From IMG/VR virus record IMGVR_UViG_3300046758_000611, positions 106,222 through 170,221 of that record: a stretch of 64,000 bases of DNA; one strand, given 5' to 3'. A program made the translations under genes and the position numbers. The notes below the pieces were generated by a model. That model was given only the letters and a program-made list of their open reading frames with translations. It made no database searches and had not been told where the DNA came from. This document shows, one piece after another, positions 46,353 to 61,579 of this stretch. How positions within the stretch are numbered: position 1 is the stretch's first letter; each line of letters starts with the position of its first letter. Source of the stretch: a virus.

Positions 46353-46667
46353 TTACCTTTTACGTTTCTGAGAACCAACTCCTCCGGACTTTATTGGAAT
46401 TGATTTGGTTGATGACTCGTATGTTTTTTTGTTTTTAAGACGATATGTAATTCTACCTTTAGACATATCATATTTGCTTATCTCAACAAGAACTTTATCA
46501 CCTATTGTTAACTTAATAAAATGTTGTTTAAGTTTACCAGCAAGAGAGCAAAGTAAAATTACTTTAGAATCTCCTTGAGATAACTCAACATCAAACATAG
46601 TTCCTGGAAGGAGTTTTTTTACGACTCCTTCCATTTCTATTATATCAGGATTATTTTTGCGTGACAT
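46353..46667 (-). CDS. infA: Translation initiation factor IF-1
   Basis: IEMEGVV..LPGTMF.VEL, GDKVLVEISKYDMSKGRITYR. Confidence 0.92.
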   Translation of the reverse strand: MSRKNNPDIIEMEGVVKKLLPGTMFDVELSQGDSKVILLCSLAGKLKQHFIKLTIGDKVLVEISKYDMSKGRITYRLKNKKTYESSTKSIPIKSGGVGSQKRKR

Positions 46668-46673
46668 AATTAC

Positions 46674-47315
46674 TTAAGTAAGAATTTCATCAACCATTCC
46701 GTACTTCAAGCAAGTTTTGGCATCCCACCACAAATCATGTTTTAGAATTTCATCCATCTTTGTTTTTGGAATCTTAGTTTTTTCTTCGTATATTTCTTTT
46801 ATACGTTTCATAAGATTATCTGAATTTTTCATGTCATCCTGAAGTTCTTGATATTTTCCCCAATGCTGAGAACTAAGTTGGTGGACAAGCATATATGAAT
46901 TTTCACCAATGAATCGTTGTGTTCCACAGACACTCATAATTGTACCCGCACTAGCCGCACATCCATCAATGTATGTATATATGGGTGTTTTTGACTGATT
47001 CATGTAATCAATGCTACCAAATGCAGCGAATACACTACCACCATAACTATTAATTCTTAATCTAATCGGAATACCCACATCAAGACCAAGTTTCATAGAA
47101 ATCATTTGCATTTCTCTGTCTAACCTAGATATTTCTTTATTAAGATTAAAATTTTCCTTCATACCAACACTCGAATAGAAGTAGATAATATTATCATCAC
47201 CTTCTACAGTATCCATCGATCCTGCCTCGGCATTTTTTGACTTTGGACTAACCTTCTTTTTTGGAGAAACCTTTTTTTTAGGTTCTACATTTTCATTAAA
47301 TTCCCAATTATACAT
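46674..47315 (-). CDS. ClpP-like protease (peptidase S14)
   Basis: INSYGGSV, AASAGT (Ser), MLVHQ (His), HDLWWDA..CLKYGMVDEI. Confidence 0.88.
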   Translation of the reverse strand: MYNWEFNENVEPKKKVSPKKKVSPKSKNAEAGSMDTVEGDDNIIYFYSSVGMKENFNLNKEISRLDREMQMISMKLGLDVGIPIRLRINSYGGSVFAAFGSIDYMNQSKTPIYTYIDGCAASAGTIMSVCGTQRFIGENSYMLVHQLSSQHWGKYQELQDDMKNSDNLMKRIKEIYEEKTKIPKTKMDEILKHDLWWDAKTCLKYGMVDEILT

Positions 47316-47317
47316 AA

Positions 47318-47518
47318 CTATCTAATTTTTCTTGGTTTGTTTGTTTTGACAATGGATACCTTTGACGAAGGATCGTGGTTTTTGCAAATACCAATCCAGT
47401 ATTGTGCTTCACGTTTAGCATCATCTTCATTGATGAAGTTTCTATCGGAGGTTCTACGTCTATCACGAGTAACCACATAAACTTCGGTTTGAGGGTCGTA
47501 GTCTTGCTTCTTATTCAT
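47318..47518 (-). CDS. Hypothetical protein
   Basis: 66 aa ORF in operon. Confidence 0.55.
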   Translation of the reverse strand: MNKKQDYDPQTEVYVVTRDRRRTSDRNFINEDDAKREAQYWIGICKNHDPSSKVSIVKTNKPRKIR

Positions 47519-47536
47519 ATATATTTATGTATATTT

Positions 47537-49186
47537 TTAGTTATTGTTTGGAAGAATAATATTATCAGGTTTTTCAATCTTTACAATACTTTCTTCGTTA
47601 GATTCTTTAGAGTCGTGTCCGACAACGTCGGAAGATTTTTTTTCAGTAGTGTTCTTTGCATAACAAGATGTGTCTTGAAACATTTCATCGAGGAAATTTT
47701 TTTGACCCTCTGATTCTTCAAGGGGATTGCCATGCATATCAAATCCAGCATCTTTTAAATCACCGATAATACTATTAATAGTAACACTATCGGCAACACT
47801 TGTGCCATACTTATTTTCGTAGTATTCAAATATCTCACGTGCTTTGGGGTGCATATTTTCACGTCTTTTATCATTATTGATAGTGTGAACAACATCCCAT
47901 TCGGTATTTGCTACTCCGTGCCAATCGTAAATAAAACAACTATCCGGTTCATTTGTCTTTTCGACGGAGTCGAAAGAATTTTTTTCGGAAGATACTTCAT
48001 GGAACTCATCAGTAAAACTTTCATTCGTTTTCGGTTTTTCACCGTATTGTTCAGCAGCCACTTGAATTGGATGTTTATTTCCATTTTGCCCATCAACGTC
48101 GAAAGAATTTTTTTCGGAAGGTTGTCCATTTGCATAATCGGTATTGTTGTACATCACATCAAACATATCCACATCTACATCACCAACAATATCGTAGGTT
48201 TCGAGAGAATTTTTTTTCAAAGGATTGTCGGTACTTTGACGAATACATCCAGCAATGATAGATTCTTTGCGATTAACGGCATCAAAATCAATAAGACCTT
48301 CACATGGATTACCAGGTTCACCTTCTACACCCCGTTCCGAGTAAAGATTATAGTCATCAGGACCATCCACAGGTGTCCATTCATCCTCATCCCAAGTTTC
48401 ATCATCGTATACATTACCTTCACTATCATAATATACAGGTGATTCGTATACAGGAATCAAATCAAATGGATTTTCAATTTCTTCGTGAACAACATAACGA
48501 TAAACACGAACTTTTTGACGATCACTATCTTCCGGTACACTAACTACATCCGATGGATTAACTTTAACGGAAACAAGACGATCACCAACCTGTTCACCGT
48601 TTTCATCAATTTTAAAACTTCCGTAACTACGAACATATTCAATGCTACCACAATGAAGACCACTTGAACAATGCTTTGTGGGATCAGCAGTTACTTCTTC
48701 ATAGGGCATTTTTACTTTATTACCAACTTTATTTGAAATCGTTCCAGTATACTTGTCGGTATAATCACGATTAATTGCTTTGTAAGCAAGGAAACATCCG
48801 TCTTCGGTGATAGGAAGGTTCTCGTGCTTCAAAAAGGTATAAAGTTGATCTATGCTACCTTCAGAGGGATTATCCATAAGATTAACAAGGAAGTTAATCA
48901 TGGGTTCTACCGCATCACCGTTTTGAATCATATCTACGATTCGTTGAGTAAGTACGTTGTGTACAATTGTTCCGTTGTAAATTAAGTTATCTCCATCAAC
49001 AACAATTTGCCCATTGGAAAATTCTTTGTATCCATTTTTGACATCAAGAAGATTGTCAATGTCGAGGAAATTTTTTTGAAGCAATGCTTTTTTAATTTTA
49101 TAGAAATTAGGATGAGTTTTACTAACAACCGCAGGTCCCGATTCGGATATTAGTGTAATTGTTGAGTCGGTGATTATACTTTGCAT
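47537..49186 (-). CDS. rIIB: rIIB-like protein with long acidic C-terminal extension
   Basis: NLMDNPS, LPITEDGCFLAYK, CSSGLH, KVNPSDVVSVP. Confidence 0.88.
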   Translation of the reverse strand: MQSIITDSTITLISESGPAVVSKTHPNFYKIKKALLQKNFLDIDNLLDVKNGYKEFSNGQIVVDGDNLIYNGTIVHNVLTQRIVDMIQNGDAVEPMINFLVNLMDNPSEGSIDQLYTFLKHENLPITEDGCFLAYKAINRDYTDKYTGTISNKVGNKVKMPYEEVTADPTKHCSSGLHCGSIEYVRSYGSFKIDENGEQVGDRLVSVKVNPSDVVSVPEDSDRQKVRVYRYVVHEEIENPFDLIPVYESPVYYDSEGNVYDDETWDEDEWTPVDGPDDYNLYSERGVEGEPGNPCEGLIDFDAVNRKESIIAGCIRQSTDNPLKKNSLETYDIVGDVDVDMFDVMYNNTDYANGQPSEKNSFDVDGQNGNKHPIQVAAEQYGEKPKTNESFTDEFHEVSSEKNSFDSVEKTNEPDSCFIYDWHGVANTEWDVVHTINNDKRRENMHPKAREIFEYYENKYGTSVADSVTINSIIGDLKDAGFDMHGNPLEESEGQKNFLDEMFQDTSCYAKNTTEKKSSDVVGHDSKESNEESIVKIEKPDNIILPNNN

Positions 49187-49364
49187 AATTAATTCTTTTT
49201 AATTAGATTAAGATTGTGGTTGACCGTCTTCTCCAAGAGGAGCAAGGCCTTGTTTCTTTCTTGCTTTGTTTTTGTTTGCAATTTGCGAACGATTCATTTT
49301 AGGTGTAACCATAGTTCCATAAATTCCTTTTACCAATACACCGGAACTTCGACCGGTTTTTTTT
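47628..49364 (+). repeat. Left cluster of TCGA-(purine-rich)-T-tract motif
   Basis: Copies at 47688, 47970, 48099, 48201, 49062; variants at 47628 and 49349. Confidence 0.75.
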
Positions 49365-49429
49365 GAGACTTGGTATATTTTTGGATGCTTTTCTTTATTA
49401 GGTATGTTAATTCGTGCTTTCTTGCTCAT
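49208..49429 (-). CDS. Small basic hypothetical protein
   Basis: 73 aa Lys/Arg-rich ORF between rIIA and rIIB. Confidence 0.55.
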   Translation of the reverse strand: MSKKARINIPNKEKHPKIYQVSKKTGRSSGVLVKGIYGTMVTPKMNRSQIANKNKARKKQGLAPLGEDGQPQS

Positions 49430-49710
49430 GGTTGTAAATCCCGTTCTTGATTATTAAAATTACTTTTTTTAGTGGATTCTACGGAAGAATATTTATATTT
49501 CTTTGTAAGTTTAGATTGCTTTCCCATTCCAAACCTTTTCTTTAAACGATGTTTCCAATGTTGTGATGATTTCATGATTTATATATATTTGTTTGTTATT
49601 AAATTTATTTATTATAATAATACTTCATAAAACGTCTCTCGTCAACTTTTTTTTAATTTCATGCGAAATCAAAAAAAAACTTTCCTTAGACTTGTTAGTA
49701 TCCATTGATA

Positions 49711-51969
49711 TTACTTTTTGGTGGAATTTACCAATTCCATGTATTCAATAAGATTTTCCATAGAGTTAGTGTAGGAACCAGAACCATCTAAAGCACTTCC
49801 CATGAACCTTACCATTGGATACTCTTGGGAAAGCATATGAGGTATGTTCTTGAGGGTATATGACACCTTAGAAGTAAAGTAGGAATACAAGTTTCTTTCA
49901 CAATGAATATTTGTATATCTCGTAAAGTTTTCAAAGTCGTGAGACGATTGAGATTCTTCGTCAGAAACATTTTTTTCAGAATGATTATTAATGTTTATGA
50001 TTCTACGAATCTTCATTAATTCTTTTATTGTATCAGTATTACCAGATTCTTTAAGAAGAACACATACTCTTTTAAATACACGATTGTTAAGTAGATTATT
50101 AACAACCTTGTAAGAACCATCATGCTTGAAGTGATAAAACTTTCTTGCAATAACAGATTGATAAAGAGAACCAGTTTTATTTTTGAACGAAGATTCAATG
50201 TAATCGGAAATTACATCAAATACATTCTTGAAGTTATCATACTTTGTGAGTTTCTTGGTTTGAGCATACTTGATTCCGTAAATCTTAACATCATCTTGTT
50301 CAATGACCTTGTTAAGTAAAGTATTAAGTTTGCAAGTATTAGAATATTCACTATCATGGAAATAAATTTTCCAATTACGAATAGGAACATAATAAATAGT
50401 GTCCTTGGTATTCAAAGCAATTTCTTCTTCAGAACTCCAATTGCCAGCACTATTCCAACCATAGTCATTTATTTTCTCGTAAGCAATCACACTATCTTTG
50501 GTTGTAGTGGAAGAACTACGATTGGTGGGAGGTTTTTCCAATTCGGAAGTAACACTAACTTTATTTGGATAACCGATGAGTTTTAAATAGTTGCGTTCTT
50601 TGTCGGTAAACTCGTCAAATACAAGAACAACTTTGTTTTTATTCTCACGAACATAATGATTTATACGACTAACACTACCAGTTGGTAGATCGTTTTGAAA
50701 GAACTCTACATCAGCATCAAATGGAATGATACCATTAACATCACTTCTACGATTTACTTTATCAGCACCGTGGTATCTATTTCTTTTAGGAGAACCCAAC
50801 CAAAACAAACGATAATCCATTTTTTCAAGATTAGGATTCTTGGAAACATCTCCGTATCGTTCAGATACATCTATTCCATTCCAAGATAGTTTTTCAGTCC
50901 ACTTGAAGTGTCCAATGCTTCCACTTCCGTTGCGATCAATGTCAGAGTAGTATTCTTCGTTGTAACCAACCATACTATTAAAAAGAATACGAGCATCCCA
51001 AAAGTTCTCACAATCATTTAATTGCTCGTTCATAATATCCTTAATTTCGTTGTAAACACGTTCAACGAAATTAACCATATACTCACGACCTTCACTTGTC
51101 CAACCGATTTCTTCACGACTTGCAGTAACATCTAGATTTCCGATAGGAACACGAAATACCAAGTTACTAACCAGTCTACGATATTCGTAAGTGTTGCTCC
51201 ATCCGTGCTTTTTTTCAAAGTCATCAGAAACATCAGAGAAATTGAATGGATAAGCAACATTACCCATAAGAATAATAGAATCAGAATAAGTAAGTTGTGA
51301 ATCTACATAATACCAATCTTTTCCTTCAAGTCTCTTGGTAGGAACTTTAACTTCTTCTTTCGTTGATCCGATAGTAAGATTAGGAGTTACATCAAAGTAA
51401 CCTAGAATGCGTTGTGCAGACTCACGAAGTTTATCGTAAGTATTTGCTTCAGTAGGAGTAAACTTGATTTCAGTACCAGATGCTTCATCAGTATTCTCTT
51501 CAGAGATGATAGAAAAGTTTGGGACATCCGCATCAAGATAATTGATAACCGTAGTCTTCTTACCATCCTTTACAGAAGTAACCGTAAACGCATCACTAAG
51601 AGTAAAAGGAGTTTTACTTCCTAATCCCATACAGCCCACAAAGTCGTTGCTATGAGTTTTGTTGCTATCAAAGTAAGTAGTATAAGTAGTTTCAAGTTCT
51701 TGTTTGCTCATACCAATGCCATAGTCCCTAATAGAGAACCAAGGCTCTGCCACACTAGGCAGGTGTACATCAAAAGGTGTATGGATATTACCTTTGGCTA
51801 CGTGAGCATCATATGCGTTAGTAGATAACTCACGAATAGGAGCAGCTATTTTGTCACTATATAAACCATCACTTAATATCTTAAATGCTTTTGCTGATGC
51901 CTTGATTGAATACTGAGTAGTATTAGGTAATGTATTACTTACTACGTTAGGAGCTGTTTTAAGTTGCAT
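49711..51969 (-). CDS. rIIA: rIIA-like protein (GHKL ATPase N-terminus)
   Basis: LYSDKIAAPIRELSTNAYDAH, RDYGIGM, GCMGLGSK, MGNVAYP, ASRE. Confidence 0.92.
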   Translation of the reverse strand: MQLKTAPNVVSNTLPNTTQYSIKASAKAFKILSDGLYSDKIAAPIRELSTNAYDAHVAKGNIHTPFDVHLPSVAEPWFSIRDYGIGMSKQELETTYTTYFDSNKTHSNDFVGCMGLGSKTPFTLSDAFTVTSVKDGKKTTVINYLDADVPNFSIISEENTDEASGTEIKFTPTEANTYDKLRESAQRILGYFDVTPNLTIGSTKEEVKVPTKRLEGKDWYYVDSQLTYSDSIILMGNVAYPFNFSDVSDDFEKKHGWSNTYEYRRLVSNLVFRVPIGNLDVTASREEIGWTSEGREYMVNFVERVYNEIKDIMNEQLNDCENFWDARILFNSMVGYNEEYYSDIDRNGSGSIGHFKWTEKLSWNGIDVSERYGDVSKNPNLEKMDYRLFWLGSPKRNRYHGADKVNRRSDVNGIIPFDADVEFFQNDLPTGSVSRINHYVRENKNKVVLVFDEFTDKERNYLKLIGYPNKVSVTSELEKPPTNRSSSTTTKDSVIAYEKINDYGWNSAGNWSSEEEIALNTKDTIYYVPIRNWKIYFHDSEYSNTCKLNTLLNKVIEQDDVKIYGIKYAQTKKLTKYDNFKNVFDVISDYIESSFKNKTGSLYQSVIARKFYHFKHDGSYKVVNNLLNNRVFKRVCVLLKESGNTDTIKELMKIRRIININNHSEKNVSDEESQSSHDFENFTRYTNIHCERNLYSYFTSKVSYTLKNIPHMLSQEYPMVRFMGSALDGSGSYTNSMENLIEYMELVNSTKK

Positions 51970-52104
51970 AATAGATGATAGTTGATGTAATATATGTTAG
52001 TTGATTATTAGAAACTGAATAAGGTCTACGATTTATTATAGTTATATTATAGTTCTTAGAAAAAAATGAATTCCTCTATCTCTCGTATTTCTCATTATGA
52101 TATC

Positions 52105-52133
52105 ATCTTACCATAATACCCCTTAGACGTCAA
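52105..52133 (-). promoter_or_regulatory. sigma70-like promoter upstream of rIIA
   Basis: TTGACG-N17-TAAGAT with TG extension. Confidence 0.65.
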
Positions 52134-52226
52134 CATCTATTTTTATAATTTTTTTATAATTTAGAATTATTATGTAGGTTGGGTAAATATTCCCCCAAAA
52201 AATTGATGTATGCTACTTAATACTAC

Positions 52227-52484
52227 TTAGTTAGGATACACAGGTTCTACAATGCAGTTTGCTTCTAAAGAGATTTCATATGCTTGATCCATGTTTACAC
52301 GATCTCCTACACTAACAACTCTTGGTTTTGATCCTGAGTTTTTGTTTATTTCAAAGCATACACCATTTTCAATTTTCATAATTTCAAAATGAGCATCACT
52401 AGCCAGCATAGCAGTAGGATGACTTTTTACATATCTTTTTAGATACACATATGTAGTGCCTTCTGATGATTTACTATTAAACAT
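52227..52484 (-). CDS. Small protein, tandem paralog family member 4
   Basis: FEIMKIEN...VSVGDRVNMDQA. Confidence 0.65.
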   Translation of the reverse strand: MFNSKSSEGTTYVYLKRYVKSHPTAMLASDAHFEIMKIENGVCFEINKNSGSKPRVVSVGDRVNMDQAYEISLEANCIVEPVYPN

Positions 52485-52513
52485 AATAGGGAATTATATA
52501 GTGTCCCCAAAAA

Positions 52514-52795
52514 TTAGTCAAGAAGCATTTCTATATTATCATCTTCCGAGTACACCGGTGTTACTACAACAGAATAAGTTCTTTCAATTTGAGTGGCTTG
52601 AGATAAAGTAATTCTTTCTCCTACTTCTAATTGTAGTTGTGGTCCATCTCCATCTGCTTCTTTAGCAAGTTTATTAACTTTAACTACAACCAGATTTTCC
52701 AACTTTCTTATTTCATAGCATTTCTCAGGATGCTCAATTGCAATAGGATGTTCTCCTACATAACGAATTAAATATATCTTTTGATTATTGTTCAT
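52514..52795 (-). CDS. Small protein, tandem paralog family member 3
   Basis: YEIRKLEN...LEVGERITLSQA; likely start ATG 52795. Confidence 0.65.
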   Translation of the reverse strand: MNNNQKIYLIRYVGEHPIAIEHPEKCYEIRKLENLVVVKVNKLAKEADGDGPQLQLEVGERITLSQATQIERTYSVVVTPVYSEDDNIEMLLD

Positions 52796-53048
52796 TTGAA
52801 GTATTCCATTTCCCAAGAAACGGTGAAACATAATCTGTGATTTTAAGTTTTGATTTTCTTCCGAGCAATTTTGATTGTTCTGGAGTAATTGTATCACCTA
52901 CACACATTTCTATTTGCGGTCCTTCTCCTTGTTTTAAATTGATTATTTTGTTTATTGCTACCGATGTAGCATTTTCAATGTCTTTAATTACAAAAAACTC
53001 ATTTTTAGTTTGAGTAACGTTTCTTTCTAAGTGTACTATTGGTTTCAT
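52785..53048 (-). CDS. Small protein, tandem paralog family member 2
   Basis: FVIKDIEN...MCVGDTITPEQS. Confidence 0.65.
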   Translation of the reverse strand: MKPIVHLERNVTQTKNEFFVIKDIENATSVAINKIINLKQGEGPQIEMCVGDTITPEQSKLLGRKSKLKITDYVSPFLGKWNTSNEQ

Positions 53049-53051
53049 ATA

Positions 53052-53360
53052 TTAATCGTTAAGTAAATCTAAATCTTTAGAATCCCTTTCCACTATTTCA
53101 ACAGTTTCATAATTGTTTTGATAATTACGGGTTTGTTGTACCAAGTGCTTTACTTGGAGTTCGTTAAGAAATTCCCCCACTCTTACTTCTTTATCAGTAA
53201 ATCCGAAGGGATCGTCTAAACTTTTTTCAGGAATAACAATAGATGCTTCGTTGATAATTTTTTTTATCTTATACGGCAGAGTTACACTCTTAGGGCAATA
53301 TTCAATAGTAACTTTTACACCCTTCGGTCTGTTTTTTCCCAATCCAAGTAAATTAATCAT
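53052..53360 (-). CDS. Small protein, tandem paralog family member 1
   Basis: YKIKKIIN...VRVGEFLNELQV. Confidence 0.65.
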   Translation of the reverse strand: MINLLGLGKNRPKGVKVTIEYCPKSVTLPYKIKKIINEASIVIPEKSLDDPFGFTDKEVRVGEFLNELQVKHLVQQTRNYQNNYETVEIVERDSKDLDLLND

Positions 53361-53390
53361 ATAAATATATATATTATATCATCGATAATT

Positions 53391-53783
53391 TTACGATTTT
53401 TTGATTTCATTTAGAAATATTTTATGTCCAATTGAATTTAACCAATTTTCGTATTGTTTTAAAACTTTAGATGTAATTGCAGGTGGTGATAACAACTGGT
53501 ATGAATCAAAGTCCATTGTTTCTGATACAGGTACTTTCAATGTATCGTGTAATTGATTAATTTTAGTGTAATTGATAGCAGACTCTGACATAAATTCCCA
53601 CTTAAAAATGTTAAACAGAGAATCCATTCCAAATATAATACAATCACGTTCTTCAGTATCAAGAGTATGAATAAAATCTAATTCATTGTGGGAATAAGGA
53701 TTTTTAACAATTTCTTTGCTTAAAGTTAGAATTTCACTTAAATCTGGCAAAGTATAGTATTTTTTTCCGTTTAATATCTTCAT
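53391..53783 (-). CDS. Hypothetical protein
   Basis: 130 aa ORF with ATATTTATA upstream. Confidence 0.55.
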   Translation of the reverse strand: MKILNGKKYYTLPDLSEILTLSKEIVKNPYSHNELDFIHTLDTEERDCIIFGMDSLFNIFKWEFMSESAINYTKINQLHDTLKVPVSETMDFDSYQLLSPPAITSKVLKQYENWLNSIGHKIFLNEIKKS

Positions 53784-54605
53784 TTATGCTAATTTTATAT
53801 ATAAATATTAAATAATTCGCACAAAAAGGTGATTACAGACGGTGTAGTACACGTATTCATAGGTTTTTTATAGTAAAATCTTGGGAAAAAAATTTATAAT
53901 CTGGATTTTTTGAGATTTTGTCCGAAAAAATAAAAAATCTGGTGTCTAAAATTCGATATGAGTAAAGATCTGACAAAAAAATGGTCATCCACACAAGAGT
54001 AGACTAGGCCGGCCCTTTTTTCGGCTTTAGTTGGCTGGGTTACAAAAAAAAATATTAGTATTTCTAATAGCACTATATGCACTATATGTTGTGTATATAA
54101 TACTATATGCTTATGAACATATACAATGACTTATTATATCAACTATATAAGATATTAGTATAATACCTACTACGTAAATAATAATATTAACAAGGATTTC
54201 CACGAAATTAACCAGTACAAAGCATTGTAATGGCTATTACACTTGCAAGAATAAGTGCTTTTTTCGTGATTTTTACTGTTTTTTCCGAAGAAATTATGTT
54301 TTTTGTTGATTTTATCACCTTCACCATGATAATAAATATTATAAAAACTCATTTTTTTGCATTATTATATCATTAGAAGCACTAATAGCCGTTTATATGC
54401 AGTTTTTGGTTGGAATTTATATAAGTTTATGTAATAATAGTATATAAATGAGCATACTCAGACATCATACTTGTAATATAATAAGATTATTTGCAATACT
54501 AAATATTTGTATTGCTTTAAGTGCGTTTATATTTGTTGTTAGTATACTATATGCTATATATGGTATATTATCAAGTATGTCCAGCCTTTTTGTTCGGATA
54601 GTAAA

Positions 54606-55094
54606 TTAAGTTTTACTTTGAAATTTGTAATAAACATGAACAATAATCAATAAAGTGATTATGCCCACGAAACCGGCCATGCTATCTAGCATCTCTTGAA
54701 TGTTATATACTACTATATTACCTAAAAAGAAATTGTCACCGAATAATATTACTCCTAATAATAACAAAGGTATAACACTAATCAATAACAATGTTATATG
54801 ACGAACATATTCATTAACGGTTTTAAAAATATTTTGTATATTGATTTTTTTCATTTTATTGGTATTTGGATTTTCCGCAATTTCTTCGTTATCACGGTCA
54901 ATTGCATAATTGCTCAACGGAGAATGAATTTCTATATAAGGTTGTTGTCGTTGTTCAGGATACTCAGCATAAAATAATTCTTGTGCTTCATCCGGTGAAT
55001 TTGCTTTATAGGTAACCGTTTTGTTGCTTAGTGGATTATCCGGGTGTTGTTTAAATGTGATATTATAGGTTTTTAATTTTTTTTGGGGATTCAC
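54606..55094 (-). CDS. Hypothetical membrane protein (2 C-terminal TM)
   Basis: Hydrophobic C-terminal segments; start uncertain. Confidence 0.5.
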   Translation of the reverse strand: MNPQKKLKTYNITFKQHPDNPLSNKTVTYKANSPDEAQELFYAEYPEQRQQPYIEIHSPLSNYAIDRDNEEIAENPNTNKMKKINIQNIFKTVNEYVRHITLLLISVIPLLLLGVILFGDNFFLGNIVVYNIQEMLDSMAGFVGIITLLIIVHVYYKFQSKT

Positions 55095-55389
55095 GTTTTT
55101 TTCGTAAGTTGCGTATTATCAACACTTTAAATTTTTTTTTTGCAATACTTTTTTATCGTGTAAGTTCAACGATAATACATACCACGAATAATACAATCAT
55201 TGTGTATGTAAAAATTTCAATCATATTTTTCTATGCGTTGCTTCACCTAAATATCTTGATATAGCATTACCAATAACTTGTGCTAATTCTTGTTGTGTTG
55301 TATCATTCAATAAATTTGGACTTATAACATTATAGCCATTGTCCGCAAGATATTTTTGTATAGCATCATATACTACATTGTTTATTGTT

Positions 55390-55722
55390 TCACTCATAAT
55401 TTAATTGCCGAAATGTTACTTCATATTTTTTGTTGTTAGAATCAATAAATGTAATATCACGTTTACCACTACGAAAATTATACCCACTGTCTGATTTAGT
55501 GTAACCTTGTGCTTTCATAGCAGATACAATAACATCATCTACTTCCATTGTTGTATTACGATTTAATTCCGCATTATCTACAATAGTATTTTCAGATTGT
55601 TGTTGATGTTCAGTAATTGCTTTTTCTACTTTTTGTGCAATCCATGTTCTTGCTACATTACTTTCGAGATTCAATTGCATTCCAGATAAGTTCTTTAATG
55701 CATCTTCTATTATTTTAATCAT
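55390..55722 (-). CDS. Hypothetical protein
   Basis: TTGACT-N17-TAATAT 6 nt before ATG. Confidence 0.6.
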   Translation of the reverse strand: MIKIIEDALKNLSGMQLNLESNVARTWIAQKVEKAITEHQQQSENTIVDNAELNRNTTMEVDDVIVSAMKAQGYTKSDSGYNFRSGKRDITFIDSNNKKYEVTFRQLNYE

Positions 55723-56085
55723 ATCTTAATATTATAATATAATTTGATATTAGTCAAATACTTTATGCAGAGCACACAGAGCACAACAGCATTTAAGCAG
55801 GGCTTGATATTTCAGTTGCTAATATTGGCTATAACCAGTATATGAACCAGAATATAATTTCTAATTTGAAAATTTAATTCACAATGTGTGTATACACCAG
55901 GTTGCGTAATATAGTACATGGATGTAATCTGCGATGATTTTAAACTGCTGTATTCATTGCAAAAACATTTGGTACTTTTTTTGACTTACGATAAACTTAT
56001 ATGTAACCCACCCTCCCACTCCTTAGAGTGTAATAAAGTTTTTATAATTTGTCAAGACTATTATTATAAAAAAGATATAAAAACT

Positions 56086-56166
56086 TTATTTTTTCATTAG
56101 TTCCGACCATACCCAAATACAGCCAGTTACTATCAGTATAATTGCTACTATAATCCATTCGTTCAT
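56086..56166 (-). CDS. 26-aa single-TM peptide
   Basis: TTGACT-N17-TATATT 7 nt before ATG; MNEWIIVAIILIVTGCIWVWSELMKK. Confidence 0.45.
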   Translation of the reverse strand: MNEWIIVAIILIVTGCIWVWSELMKK

Positions 56167-56910
56167 GTTATATAATATAGTATGATAATGTGAATAAGTC
56201 AAATTATTTTTGTCAAGTTTTTTATGATATATTTCCCCAAGAAAAATGAAGGCATTTTGGGTCTGGTTCTGTTCCCCTCCCACCATCCCTTGATGGTATC
56301 AAAAATTTTGCGAAAAGTCAACTCATAATAATGATAATAGTAAAGCTATAAGTAATAGTAATATACGCATACATAGTAATAGTATAACGCAATAGCAATC
56401 AGCACCTACTTTCAATAATATGCACCTAGCAAAAATATTTAACTGCCATATCGTAAGTTGCTATTATTCAGTATGTTGTGTAGGTAATGAATATAAGCAA
56501 TTATTTTTCGTAGGTGCTAATTGCTTTTTATCGGCCGTTGCTAGTGGGGGCAATGCATATTATCATTAGTAATAGTAATAAGGAATGTGTATGAAATGGC
56601 TTGACAGCAATAGTGTTTTTTGCTATGAGTAGCTATGGCATAATTAGGATGCCTCTGCGAGAAACCCCTATATTAAATTATAGGTGTGGTAGGCTCTCAG
56701 CCTTTATCAATCAGTATTTTATTATATTATACATAAATAAATGTATATGACTATCAATATATCTACCTTGATACCTAGAACGCATTTGACACCTATAATA
56801 CAAGGTTTATCATGCACACAAGGTTAAAAGGTATTTTTGGGGACATATAGCCCTACCTAAACGTATACTATATTTGTCTATTATGCTATTAGGCTATTAC
56901 TATATGAATA

Positions 56911-56999
56911 TTATCAATTAACATCAACTATCATCAACTATCATCAATTATCATCAATTATCATCAATTATCGTTAGTTGGTGGATGGGGACAACTAAC
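56911..56999. repeat. Six 10-bp tandem repeats (TCATCAAYTA) followed by an 8-bp inverted repeat
   Basis: ttatcaatta acatcaacta tcatcaacta tcatcaatta x3, then GTTAGTTG-N11-CAACTAAC. Confidence 0.85.
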
Positions 57000-57318
57000 C
57001 TGATGTTATACGCATTTAGCATTTATAGACGGGTAAGACGACGTTCATGCTATTTCATTTAACCTATTACTATTACTATTACTTATACTATGTTTATTAC
57101 TATTATGCATTATGCGTATATTATCTACTTTACTATTACTATTACTATTATTACTTGTATAGCTATTATCATTATCATTATGCTATATTTCCGCAAAAAT
57201 TTATATAACTTTTTCAGGCCATATCTAGTTCCCTTTTACGGGTAATTCGGTGGGTGGAAAACGAGGCCTAATAATAGATGAAATGAAGAAGAAATCAAAT
57301 GGTTGCGAAAGCAAGCAT

Positions 57319-58215
57319 TTATTTCTTTTGAATGAAATCTGAGTGCATATAATACTCTAAATTTTGAGGAGGATTTTTGTCCTCAATAGTATACCGATAA
57401 TCATCAATTTTGGTAAGACCTTTTCCACCACTAGAAACAACAACACCATTTGAAAAATGAGAAGCAATAGTAGAAAAACAACTTGAAGATTTAATCAAAA
57501 CATCTGCACGAAACATATAATATAAGTCCTGAATAGCATCTTCATTTATACGCAATTCCACATCCTTTAAATTTCTAAATCTATACAAAGAATCAATATG
57601 TTTAATAAGAGAATTAGCAATATCATCATTACGTTTGCCATCAAAAATTTTTCTCGAATCCTCGGTTATTATAATGATTTTAAGAGGTTTATTCTGATAA
57701 TTGCACAATGTATTATTGCGAACAAATTGAATAGCATCAAGAAAAAATTCATCACTATTTGCTCGTTGTTTAAATCTATTATTAAAACGAAACAAATCAC
57801 CTCTGCGAATATGAACCACTATATTATAGTAATCATAATTCAATGAATCAAGGGATGAATGAACGACACTTTTATTAAACTTTTCAAGATATAATTCTTT
57901 AACCATATTAAAATGATAAGGATGTTTTTTGAATAATCTAGGCACACAATTTTCACCTTTTCTACACATACCCATAAAAGTAATTTTATTATACTCAATA
58001 TCATCAATGTACAATTCGTTGTATCCAAGATTAAAAAATTCCTCGACTTTTTTTCCGTATTCATAATCATCTTTATGATGAGAACTTTTTACAAATGGAA
58101 CATGAACATACTCAACATCATCTGTAATTTTACAATACCCCCAAAGAAAAAATCGCCGTATCATTTGAGCACCTATGCCATCTCGTTTTTTATCATCAAA
58201 TGCTAAATATTTCAT
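57319..58215 (-). CDS. Fucosyltransferase-like glycosyltransferase (GT11/GT23-like)
   Basis: DGIGAQ, VHIRRGD, SSCFS; likely ATG 58215. Confidence 0.7.
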   Translation of the reverse strand: MKYLAFDDKKRDGIGAQMIRRFFLWGYCKITDDVEYVHVPFVKSSHHKDDYEYGKKVEEFFNLGYNELYIDDIEYNKITFMGMCRKGENCVPRLFKKHPYHFNMVKELYLEKFNKSVVHSSLDSLNYDYYNIVVHIRRGDLFRFNNRFKQRANSDEFFLDAIQFVRNNTLCNYQNKPLKIIIITEDSRKIFDGKRNDDIANSLIKHIDSLYRFRNLKDVELRINEDAIQDLYYMFRADVLIKSSSCFSTIASHFSNGVVVSSGGKGLTKIDDYRYTIEDKNPPQNLEYYMHSDFIQKK

Positions 58216-59446
58216 ATCAAAAGGTATAATCCAAATATTGAATATCATTAGCATATTTTGAAACAAGCAATTTTTTTGTTTGTTCTGAATAATACTCTGA
58301 ATAGTGATTATGATAAGTAGAGTTTTTAATCTTTAATTTACTTTTAGGTTTATTTATCATATCGCACAATGTATCATAATCATTTTGTAAGTTTTCGTAT
58401 CTTCCCACAAAATTCATTTTACATACATCATTCATATAAATAAAATCATAATTGGGTAATAAGTGCTGGTGAATAGATTGTTGTCTTTGTGTATATTCAA
58501 GATCTTGTGCAATGAAATGATCAAATGTTGGATGTTCGTTTTCATAGTTCTTATGAATTTTACAACGATAAAAGTATTCTGAAACCGCACGTTCAAATGG
58601 ATTTCTAATAAAACTGAATTTGAAATAATCATCAAATTGTTTCGTAGAAAGATAATCATATTCTAATAATTGTGATATACTATAATGTTGTCTATATAAC
58701 ATATGTGCCTTACTCCAACCAATAGGATTTCTTTGATCTGTAAATTCCTTGGTAATTGTTTGTGTGGCAGTTTTTGGTATTTCCACAAACACTATTTTTA
58801 AGTTATGATCAATCACACATATAAATATGATTTTGATGATTTATCGTTTCCACCAAAAATCGTGAGCATATAACCAATATCTACGGTCATACCAATATAG
58901 AATATAACGATCATAATACCACATGGAATAAAACCAACCATATTCTTCACTGTATAAAAAATTTTGCTCGATTCCGAAACTGAATACCCACCCTAAATCT
59001 TCACGATATATCCATGTATCGTATGTGGTACTTTGTATAGTAGTAGAATAAGTCCATCCGTGGTTATCTATATATCTCCATTCATAGTCATCGTAAGGAT
59101 CATCAATAATACTAAGTTTAGGTTCTTTTATAGTAGTATCTACTTTATGAACATTATTTGGTTCTTCCGAAAAATTTTTCCTCGATGGGTCTGGCAACAT
59201 ATCTCTTGCTGGAATGCCAAATGGATCGGGTTTGCTTTCATTCAAGATATTCATTGTTTTCTGAAATTGTTTGTTACGAGATAAACATCTTGAGAAATGA
59301 ATACCAATATCTAATGGTTCGTGAGCATTTACGGTTTTGCAATATTTACATCCGCAGAGAAAATCTGAGATTTGAGGATAATATCTACCAGCAAATAAAT
59401 TACATACAATCAATAAACCACTGTATATTAAAAAAATTTTGCTCGA
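57643..59446 (-). repeat. Right cluster of TCGA-(purine-rich)-T-tract motif, mirror orientation
   Basis: Copies at 57643-57657, 58033-58046, 58956-58971, 59170-59185, 59430-59446. Confidence 0.75.
58217..58816 (-). CDS. Sulfotransferase family 2 protein
   Basis: IPKTATQTI (5'-PSB), RNPFERAVSEY (3'-PB), FVGRYENL, YANDIQYLDY. Confidence 0.88.
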   Translation of the reverse strand: MIDHNLKIVFVEIPKTATQTITKEFTDQRNPIGWSKAHMLYRQHYSISQLLEYDYLSTKQFDDYFKFSFIRNPFERAVSEYFYRCKIHKNYENEHPTFDHFIAQDLEYTQRQQSIHQHLLPNYDFIYMNDVCKMNFVGRYENLQNDYDTLCDMINKPKSKLKIKNSTYHNHYSEYYSEQTKKLLVSKYANDIQYLDYTF

Positions 59447-59449
59447 CAT
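58841..59449 (-). CDS. Secreted/membrane-anchored protein with Trp/Tyr-rich C-terminal repeats
   Basis: N-terminal hydrophobic segment; WRYIDNHGWTY, WIYREDLGWVF, FLYSEEYGWFY. Confidence 0.65.
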   Translation of the reverse strand: MSSKIFLIYSGLLIVCNLFAGRYYPQISDFLCGCKYCKTVNAHEPLDIGIHFSRCLSRNKQFQKTMNILNESKPDPFGIPARDMLPDPSRKNFSEEPNNVHKVDTTIKEPKLSIIDDPYDDYEWRYIDNHGWTYSTTIQSTTYDTWIYREDLGWVFSFGIEQNFLYSEEYGWFYSMWYYDRYILYWYDRRYWLYAHDFWWKR

Positions 59450-59479
59450 ATGATAATATATATCATACTGATAGTATAA

Positions 59480-59701
59480 TCAAAAACAAACTAAATAGAT
59501 TATACACGGAATAGTAGAACCTATTATCGTATAAAACGCATCTAATATTTCAGGGTTTCCTTTTTTAGTCTTCGCATCATATATTTCTTTAGTTATTCCT
59601 GCTATAAATCCAAGAGAAAATAATAAAGGATGAATAAATCCGAATGAAGATAATACCAATCCTGCTATAAAATGCAATTGTTTGTCTAGTGGTATTTTCA
59701 T
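59480..59701 (-). CDS. Small membrane protein
   Basis: DKQLHF..G...KEIYD...DAFYT pattern. Confidence 0.65.
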   Translation of the reverse strand: MKIPLDKQLHFIAGLVLSSFGFIHPLLFSLGFIAGITKEIYDAKTKKGNPEILDAFYTIIGSTIPCIIYLVCF

Positions 59702-60910: not shown

Positions 60911-61579
60911 ATGATGAAATTAAATATAACAAATAAATTAAAAAATATTTGCTGGAGTTGTTTGGCATTTGTGGCAATTGGTATAACGATAGTTTTTATG
61001 GCAGGTTCAAGTTGTAAAACAAAAACAGATATGCGTGAGTTAATTGATATACCAGTTATGAGTGGAGAAGATATAGAAAATTCTTTCCAAAATAAGAATT
61101 ATATTGATCGTCATACGATTGGTAGACACTTTTCAATGCAAAAATCAGCAAACTGGGTTCAAACGAAAGTTCCTACTGACTTTAAAGTTGTAATGCTTGA
61201 TACTCGTTATCGTTATGTTGATTATTATCATTTTCGCAAATTTAATAATTGGTTTAAAAAACTTATGTTTGAAGCAGGAATTCAACCTGGTATTGAAAAC
61301 AATCATCAAGCACTTGATTGTGATAACTTCGCAATGTTATGCAAATCACTTATGGGTGTTAGTGCATATAAAAGTGGAGATAAACTTGAAATGGGAGTAG
61401 CAGTAATTGTTGTTCGTCAAGTCAATGAATTTGGTGGAATACCAGGAACCGGTGGACTTCATATGCTGAATTTGATATTTACACCAGGTAAGTGGCTCAT
61501 TTACGAACCACAAACCAATGAATATATTCGTCTTGAAGATTATCCAAATCAAGAATTCGTTCAATATATGATTTTATGA
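60911..61579 (+). CDS. Exported/lipoprotein with papain/transglutaminase-like Cys-His-Glu domain
   Basis: AAGGAG SD; hydrophobic N-terminus ending AGSSC; DCDNFA, HMLN, YEPQ. Confidence 0.6.
   Translation: MMKLNITNKLKNICWSCLAFVAIGITIVFMAGSSCKTKTDMRELIDIPVMSGEDIENSFQNKNYIDRHTIGRHFSMQKSANWVQTKVPTDFKVVMLDTRYRYVDYYHFRKFNNWFKKLMFEAGIQPGIENNHQALDCDNFAMLCKSLMGVSAYKSGDKLEMGVAVIVVRQVNEFGGIPGTGGLHMLNLIFTPGKWLIYEPQTNEYIRLEDYPNQEFVQYMIL

Follow-up and report, generated by a model that had tools for sequence, protein, structure and literature searches.

Why should a word of some 16 nucleotides recur within genes on both sides of the rII region of a marine phage, in opposite orientations and always with the same end turned toward the DNA in between? 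The question arises in the window analysed here, which is the final 64 kb (64,000 nucleotides, positions 106,222 to 170,221) of the 170,221-bp virus record IMGVR_UViG_3300046758_000611, belonging to a T4-like marine phage. Cis-acting DNA signals of T4-like phages beyond promoters are poorly known, and none are known for the abundant uncultured marine lineages. An earlier note, made from the letters of the window alone, had described two inward-pointing clusters of the word around a gene-poor region and had argued for selection on DNA instead of protein. The analysis presented here supports a cis-acting element maintained in two facing arrays, and tentatively interprets the copies as oriented binding sites.

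The word takes the form TCGA[R]N2-3A2-5T5-8 and is approximately 16 nt long. Scanning the window with the pattern TCGARVRAAWWTTTTT, with one mismatch permitted, returned 10 matches compared to 0.83 expected from dinucleotide-preserving shuffles, and none of 100 such shuffles reached 10. Five matches lie on the + strand (47688, 47970, 48099, 48201 and 49062) and four on the - strand (ending at 57657, 58971, 59185 and 59446), where a shorter fifth copy ends at 58046; the tenth match, TCCAGCAAATATTTTT at 60941-60956 on the - strand, is without TCGA and was not taken as a copy. All ten copies listed in the earlier note were found at the positions and on the strands given there. Across both strands of the complete genome, every TCGA was surveyed, and the context of TCGA, purines, an A-run and a T-run of at least five was confined to the two arrays, which bears out the by-eye statement that no TCGA in the first 47 kb of the window has such a context; the closest approach outside the arrays is a single loose look-alike at genome position 50795. 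TCGA itself is depleted approximately threefold genome-wide (183 sites vs. 514 expected). The core of the word, AAAAATTTTT, is its own reverse complement, and Lys-Asn-Phe-like peptides arise from either of its strands; it is TCGA that makes the word polar.

Relatives of the locus comprised 4 IMG/VR viral contigs and 65 loci from JGI marine metagenomes, the latter found via rIIA; where individual relatives must be told apart, they are given L numbers. The left array lies entirely within rIIB (47537..49186, - strand, 549 codons), with its copies on the + strand and thus antisense to the gene. Two copies have the sequence TCGAGGAAATTTTTTT and encode QKNFLD: the one at 47688..47703 is kept in relatives, and the one at 49062..49077 (rIIB codons 37-42) is the most widely conserved of all copies. 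Two more, at 47970..47991 and 48099..48120, have the sequence TCGAAAGAATTTTTTTCGGAAG and encode SEKNSFD, the former with a 7-8-bp hairpin just before it and the latter forming one edge of a 43-codon duplication specific to the window. The remaining copy, TCGAGAGAATTTTTTTT at 48201..48217, encodes KKNSLE. Three further elements that had been proposed as variants fared differently. The element at 47628..47643 on the + strand (TCGGAAGATTTTTTTT, EKKSSD) is related to the motif, but as a decayed homologue of a perfect copy, since relatives have TCGAAGGAATTTTTTT (EKNSFD) at the homologous place. The element at 49349..49364 on the + strand (TCGACCGGTTTTTTTT, of the form TCGACCGGT8) is a conserved hairpin with a T-run, antisense in a small ORF of 73 aa between rIIA and rIIB; it resembles the TCGAC forms of one sub-lineage (L030-L032) and is possibly a variant of the motif. 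The supposed degenerate reverse copy near 49671 was not a copy; the sequence at 49630-49671 is an intergenic T8...A8 palindrome directly 3' of the rIIA stop codon, probably a bidirectional terminator-like hairpin.

The right array is carried in the sense strand of two accessory genes, both on the - strand. A 315-aa ORF (57319..58266) hosts TCGAGAAAAATTTTTG at 57642..57657, read as SRKIF, and the shorter TCGAGGAATTTTTT at 58033..58046, read as VEEFF. A 202-aa membrane-anchored ORF (58841..59449), with a hydrophobic N-terminal segment and a Trp/Tyr-rich C-terminal half, hosts the other three: TCGAGCAAAATTTTTT at 58956..58971 (IEQNF, in another frame in L024), TCGAGGAAAAATTTTTCGGAAG at 59164..59185 (SRKNF, in another frame in L025 and L037) and a second TCGAGCAAAATTTTTT at 59431..59446, which begins at codon 2 and is shifted by one base in L030. 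The earlier note had held that the copies of the right-hand genes fall in different frames, and this is correct to the extent of two frames in the window (SRKIF, SRKNF and SSKIF in one; VEEFF and IEQNF in the other) and three across the relatives.

Whether the word is kept for its nucleotides or for the peptide it encodes was addressed most directly through codon choice. In the long ORFs of this genome, Phe before Asp or Glu is encoded by TTC in only 22 of 327 cases (7%) and Leu before Asp or Glu by CTC in 12 of 552 (2%), a rarity that fits the avoidance of TCGA by the genome. When the rIIB copies of 20 distinct relatives were located by peptide pattern alone, the opposite choice was found: Phe was TTC in 46/46 and Leu was CTC in 33/34, so that TCGA-forming codons were used in 79/80 cases, with the adjacent Ser codon varying between TCT, TCC and TCG and the wobble bases of Asp and Glu varying as well. 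In the sub-lineage L030-L032 the Phe is replaced by Val, and the Val codon is GTC followed by GA in 7/7 cases, keeping TCGA intact. The 202-codon gene provides a complementary line of evidence, as its copies slide between frames across relatives with the downstream peptide remaining in frame: one copy appears either as TCG AGG AAA AAT TTT (SRKNF) or as xTC GAG GAA AAT TTT ((I/V)EENF), another as xTC GAG CAA AAT TTT (IEQNF) or TCG AGG AAA TTT (SRKF), and the start of the gene reads ATG TCG AGC or ATG TTC GAG. Additionally, shuffles in which each protein sequence was held fixed and its codons were redrawn gave 0.2-0.5 copies antisense to rIIB compared to the 5 observed (0/5000 shuffles reached 5), 0.07-0.16 compared to 3 in the 202-codon ORF (P = 2e-4) and 0.07-0.14 compared to 2 in the 315-codon ORF (P = 5e-3).

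A short linear peptide motif as the sole constraint was rejected on the 79/80 TTC/CTC usage, the invariable GTC for Val and the sliding of frames in the 202-codon ORF. An overlapping gene on the antisense strand of rIIB was also rejected, as no frame is kept open across relatives; the longest open stretch reaches 227 codons in the window and 47 in L043, and its place differs. Codon usage, shuffles and comparison among relatives show that the motif is a cis-acting element and that selection maintains its nucleotides as such. The argument for selection on DNA in the earlier note stands on these grounds, but the contrast that it drew with rIIB was too simple. There, all copies, including that at 47628, lie in the same reading frame, and the peptide repeat that they spell, KN[SF][FL][DE], is itself conserved; it is realized as QKNFLD, KKNSLE, SEKNSFD twice, QKNFLD and the decayed EKKSSD within a variable linker. 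For the left array this means either a dual constraint on DNA and peptide, or DNA sites that became fixed in one frame and left the peptide as their shadow.

The arrangement of the arrays is kept in more than 20 marine metagenomic relatives. All relatives with enough flanking sequence have antisense copies at homologous places in rIIB, down to 45-56% rIIA identity (L042, L043 and L052), and 1-5 sense copies located 5.5-8 kb upstream of rIIA. In the records of three relatives (130-161 kb), the motif pattern was again restricted to the two arrays. Within the last ~2.1 kb before an invariant sequence block at the edge of the non-coding element described below, 9 distinct relatives contain 27 sense copies of the motif, 0 antisense copies and very few other TCGA sites. 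Gene content in this stretch differs among the relatives (a cassette is missing in L002, and other ORFs are present elsewhere), and the sense copies persist, which argues for a positional role at the DNA level. The motif was not found in distant rIIA relatives (GC 42-51%), nor with a remote homologue of the 202-aa protein (39% identity, GC 38%); the motif is therefore a property of the lineage and locus and not of the protein families. The cultured-phage collection contained no close relative, its best rIIA and rIIB matches being 30-48% identical, and nothing useful was found in the literature on this phage type. One relative, L024 (contig Ga0209199_1000010), measures 358,699 bp, approximately twice the length of the present record, and may stem from an assembly that is concatemeric or duplicated, or else from a phage of larger size.

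The geometry shared by these loci consists of 2-6 copies per array, the left on the + strand and the right on the - strand, with the T-run side inward in both. Copies are irregularly spaced at 60-900 bp, and the arrays are 8.5 kb apart. The inward orientation described in the earlier note is thus conserved across this marine phage lineage, and its gene-poor region corresponds to a conserved non-coding element flanked by the arrays. The interval holds rIIA (49711..51969, - strand, with a GHKL ATPase domain, upstream of rIIB), the 73-codon basic ORF, approximately ten small ORFs, several strong TTGACA-type promoters and a stretch of 1.1 kb free of ORFs; the small genes form a run of putative early genes, and their strong promoters are of the sigma-70 type. 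The ORF-free non-coding element (56231..57336) is 67-86% identical among relatives, and the right array always adjoins its border. It contains promoter-like boxes, six phased 10-nt repeats (56909-56978), two mirror-image hexamer arrays, (GTAATA)n and (TATTAC)n, which lie ~700 nt from each other with opposite polarity, an inverted repeat of long range (56391-56419 and 56500-56528), a late-promoter-like TATAAATG box and an invariant 36-nt border block, AAATGCTTGCTTTCGCAACCATTTGATTTCTTCTTC, containing AAATGCTT. With AAATGCTT, the border block presumably resembles a T4 MotA box.

The same interval stands out in its tolerance of an otherwise avoided tetranucleotide. RGCY is depleted fourfold genome-wide (274 sites vs. 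1140 expected), and the genome nearly lacks CGCG (1 vs. 121 expected) and GCGC (2 vs. 121), with AGCT at 0.08 of its expected number. Between the arrays, an island at 51633..57265 holds 29 RGCY sites, compared to 3 in the ~4.7 kb to its left (46953-51633) and 0 in the 4.2 kb to its right. The right edge of the island lies 380 nt from the first copy of the right array.

Several further observations concern the genes and sequences around these features. Known RIIB proteins match the first ~240 aa of the rIIB product at 39-48% identity, and its C-terminal ~300 aa are an extension peculiar to the lineage. At 47991-48120 (rIIB codons ~356-405), a window-specific insertion of 43 codons lies between the two identical 22-nt motif copies encoding SEKNSFD and looks like the product of unequal recombination between them. 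The very basic 73-codon ORF (49208-49429) separates rIIA from rIIB, two genes that we take to be adjacent in T4; it has no family match, and its antisense strand carries a conserved hairpin followed by T8 (ACCGG-N8-CCGGT-T8). On the right, the 315-codon ORF contains HIRRGD, which we take to be a GT11 fucosyltransferase-like motif. It forms a cassette (57336-58848) together with a sulfotransferase-family ORF (58217-58816) situated between it and the 202-aa ORF; this is the cassette missing from L002, and its junction lies exactly at the invariant border block. The 202-codon ORF is without a Shine-Dalgarno sequence, and conserved TTGAT(T/A)-17-TATATT boxes finish 5-8 nt before its ATG (window 59447-59483), suggesting that its mRNA is leaderless and that the motif would be among its first transcribed bases. 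In the non-coding element, runs of GATAAT hexamers (ATAATGATAATGATAAT at 57160-57185, and TGATGATAAT every 10 nt at 56909-56978) presumably resemble the hexamer arrays of Fur boxes. A block of ~80 nt at 56003-56083 on the - strand is 90-99% identical in all relatives, even at 56% rIIA identity, and is conserved above the neighbouring genes. It comprises TTGACA-17-TACACT, preceded by a tract rich in A and T, and a G-rich run resembling a Shine-Dalgarno sequence, and probably serves as an early promoter of high strength.

What function could require an oriented word in two facing arrays? The reading preferred here, tentatively and at a probability of about 0.4, is that a single DNA-binding factor, sequence-specific, asymmetric and most likely encoded by the phage, would recognise the copies as oriented sites, and that the two arrays would together form a convergent boundary. 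A tracker moving along the DNA, such as a replication fork, an RNA polymerase or a translocating nuclease, would meet one face of the sites on leaving the centre and the other face on approaching it, following the boundary logic of the Tus-Ter or RTP-Ter fork traps. The KN[SF][FL][DE] repeats would then, for the most part, mirror in the protein a set of DNA sites that had become fixed in one frame. A more far-reaching version, in which the arrays act as outer gates of a DNA-processing domain and the C-terminal half of RIIB, specific to the lineage, may have taken shape around them, is rather unlikely; here, a programmed break or the firing of an origin would take place in the non-coding element, within the RGCY-tolerant stretch, and the arrays would stop or convert the outward-moving fork or resecting nuclease, amounting to a phage-encoded, Ter- or Chi-like polar control at rII.

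A number of observations weigh against the boundary interpretation. The arrays are not equidistant from the central region, the left one lying ~2.5 kb further away, and the right-array genes all run in the same direction, so that orientation to the centre is inseparable there from orientation to transcription. The distance from TCGA to the T-run in the right array varies by up to 3 nt, an internal variation that is unusual for a protein binding rigid duplex DNA. No recognisable DNA-binding domain was found with Pfam, PHROGs or Atlas in the small ORFs between the arrays or in the 73-aa basic ORF, and the cumulative GC skew reflects transcription blocks only, with no switch at the locus and no signal of an origin, terminus or end; the roles put forward in the earlier note, from genome ends or packaging to an origin, terminus or partition site, gained no support. 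Additionally, conservation of the rIIB repeat extends to the peptide, and part of the signal of the left array may be dual.

Comparison with characterized systems places the arrays closest to fork traps in layout. As with Tus-Ter of E. coli and RTP-Ter of B. subtilis, there are several asymmetric sites, some within genes, at irregular kilobase-scale spacing and in two opposed groups that face a region between them; this facing arrangement was found here and is conserved in all relatives with enough flank. The likeness is one of geometry only, however, as the motif has no sequence likeness to Ter, no Tus or RTP homologue was found (no search aimed at one was made), and the motif resides in a T4-like phage genome, and we know of no fork trap in T4-like phages. 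Protein-binding words within coding sequence, visible as a repeated peptide with unusual codons, have precedents in the lambda origin, whose iterons lie inside gene O, and in the parS sites of spo0J/parB. Unlike the asymmetric motif with its 60-900 bp spacing and two inverted arrays, the lambda iterons form a single block of direct repeats spaced ~20 bp from one another, and the parS sites are palindromes. The ends of Mu (attL/attR) and Tn7 and the pac sites of P1 and SPP1 share with the arrays several copies of a polar word on each side, inverted, that define a processed interval, but theirs extend over 100-200 bp and adjoin the cleavage site of the enzyme; no transposase or terminase gene was found nearby in the scanned ORFs. 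Chi is likewise a polar word with an active orientation relative to an entering DNA end, but it is short, G-rich and distributed genome-wide with a strand skew, in contrast to the 16-nt, AT-rich motif restricted to two arrays. To our knowledge, no element with the sequence or layout of the motif has been described in a T4-like phage.

Other explanations account for parts of the evidence. A programmed break, a cut for packaging or an end linked to an origin could arise in the central element or the RGCY island, with the arrays acting as signals for its processing; this is considered unlikely. An outward-moving nuclease-helicase would read the motif from its 3' side on either flank as RecBCD reads Chi, switching from degradation to recombination-dependent replication; alternatively, a terminase or small-terminase complex would assemble on both arrays as at the SPP1 or P1 pac. 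In favour, both arrays turn their 3' ends to the centre, in what would be the active orientation for Chi, the avoided RGCY sites are tolerated in this interval alone, the centre contains origin- or end-like repeats, and the variable spacing within the motif suits a reader of single-stranded DNA more than a rigid duplex binder. Known Chi words are nevertheless 5-8 nt long, and pac arrays extend over ~100-200 bp, in contrast to the 1.5-2 kb seen here. The region is traversed by long metagenomic contigs (L016, L024, L037 and L038), and no terminal repeat was found in the genome record. Two IMG/VR contigs begin at nearly the same point, ~57.15 kb of the window, but this shared start is probably an artefact of provirus-style trimming, given that provirus trimming affects two of the three IMG/VR records inspected. 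Next in plausibility, and likewise to be doubted, is an element acting in RNA: the right-array mRNAs (UCGAG..A3-5U5-7) would be bound or cut by an RNA-binding factor, with the rIIB copies acting through an antisense transcript or by pairing of the right-array mRNAs with complementary segments of rIIB mRNA. The sense strand carries every one of the 27 copies of the right array, one copy begins at codon 2 of the gene with the putative leaderless transcript, recognition of RNA tolerates variable spacing more easily, and the arrays are by construction complementary on the same transcribed strand. Against this stand the lack of an evident promoter for antisense transcription of rIIB, with a bidirectional terminator (46605-46633) setting the convergent + strand block apart, and predicted duplexes that are short, A/U-rich and mismatched, since the copies differ. 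No consistent secondary structure was seen, and the locus gave no match to Rfam covariance models at the gathering or E<=1 thresholds and no tRNA.

The remaining alternatives carry much less weight. Nucleation by an H-NS-like nucleoid protein of the host, with bridged clusters looping and silencing the promoter-rich interval, is quite improbable. The high-affinity H-NS site is the 10-bp tCGATAAATT (Lang et al. 2007, PMC2094087), and it shares with the motif TCGA followed by an A-then-T stretch (AAATT), AT-rich surroundings such as those flanked by the arrays, and the nucleation of sites on foreign DNA (PMC2094087). All identified H-NS sites contain a central T-A step (PMC2094087), however, and all copies of the motif have an A-to-T junction without TpA, on which ground identity with the H-NS site was rejected. 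The motif is also longer, with its run of T5-8, and its orientation is strictly kept, whereas H-NS binding needs no polarity and the host may lack the protein. Transcription terminators facing inward, which would protect the central element against read-through from either flank, are more improbable again: an RNA polymerase heading to the centre would transcribe ...UCGAG..AAAUUUUUUU, and a hairpin precedes the T-run at three + strand elements (47618, 47958 and 49340), but these are the only 3 of 12 elements with a stable hairpin, and the others, all internal right-array copies among them, fold with energies inside the shuffled expectation. A terminator at codon 2 and within the 202-aa gene would, moreover, abolish expression of that gene itself. 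A promoter function was rejected as well, since no conserved -10-like box follows the motif at a fixed distance and the flanks are unconserved. Least credible is the absence of any DNA function, with a protein-level linear motif KNxF[DE] in rIIB and right-array copies arising by chance from the palindromic A5T5 core and a stray TCGA. It is in keeping with the single frame of the rIIB copies, with a peptide conserved within a variable linker and with AAAAATTTTT encoding KNF on both strands, but it is contradicted by the near-exclusive use of TCGA-forming codons (79/80 vs. 2-7% expected), the retention of TCGA through the change of Phe to Val, the sliding of right-array copies between frames, the single orientation of 27/27 of these copies and the failure of protein-keeping shuffles to reach the observed counts.

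Combined, these results describe a signal defined purely from sequence, with clear selection at the nucleotide level and a geometry that stays fixed about a conserved hub of non-coding DNA; the arrays appear to constitute a new set of DNA signals with a defined orientation. For the biology of these phages, the motif provides a concrete handle for locating an origin, terminus or processing site, and a bait for a new sequence-specific DNA-binding or RNA-binding protein. The arrays are also linked to the unexplained local lapse of RGCY (restriction-site) avoidance beside rIIA, and the motif offers a possible reason for the 300-residue extension of RIIB with its repeated peptides.

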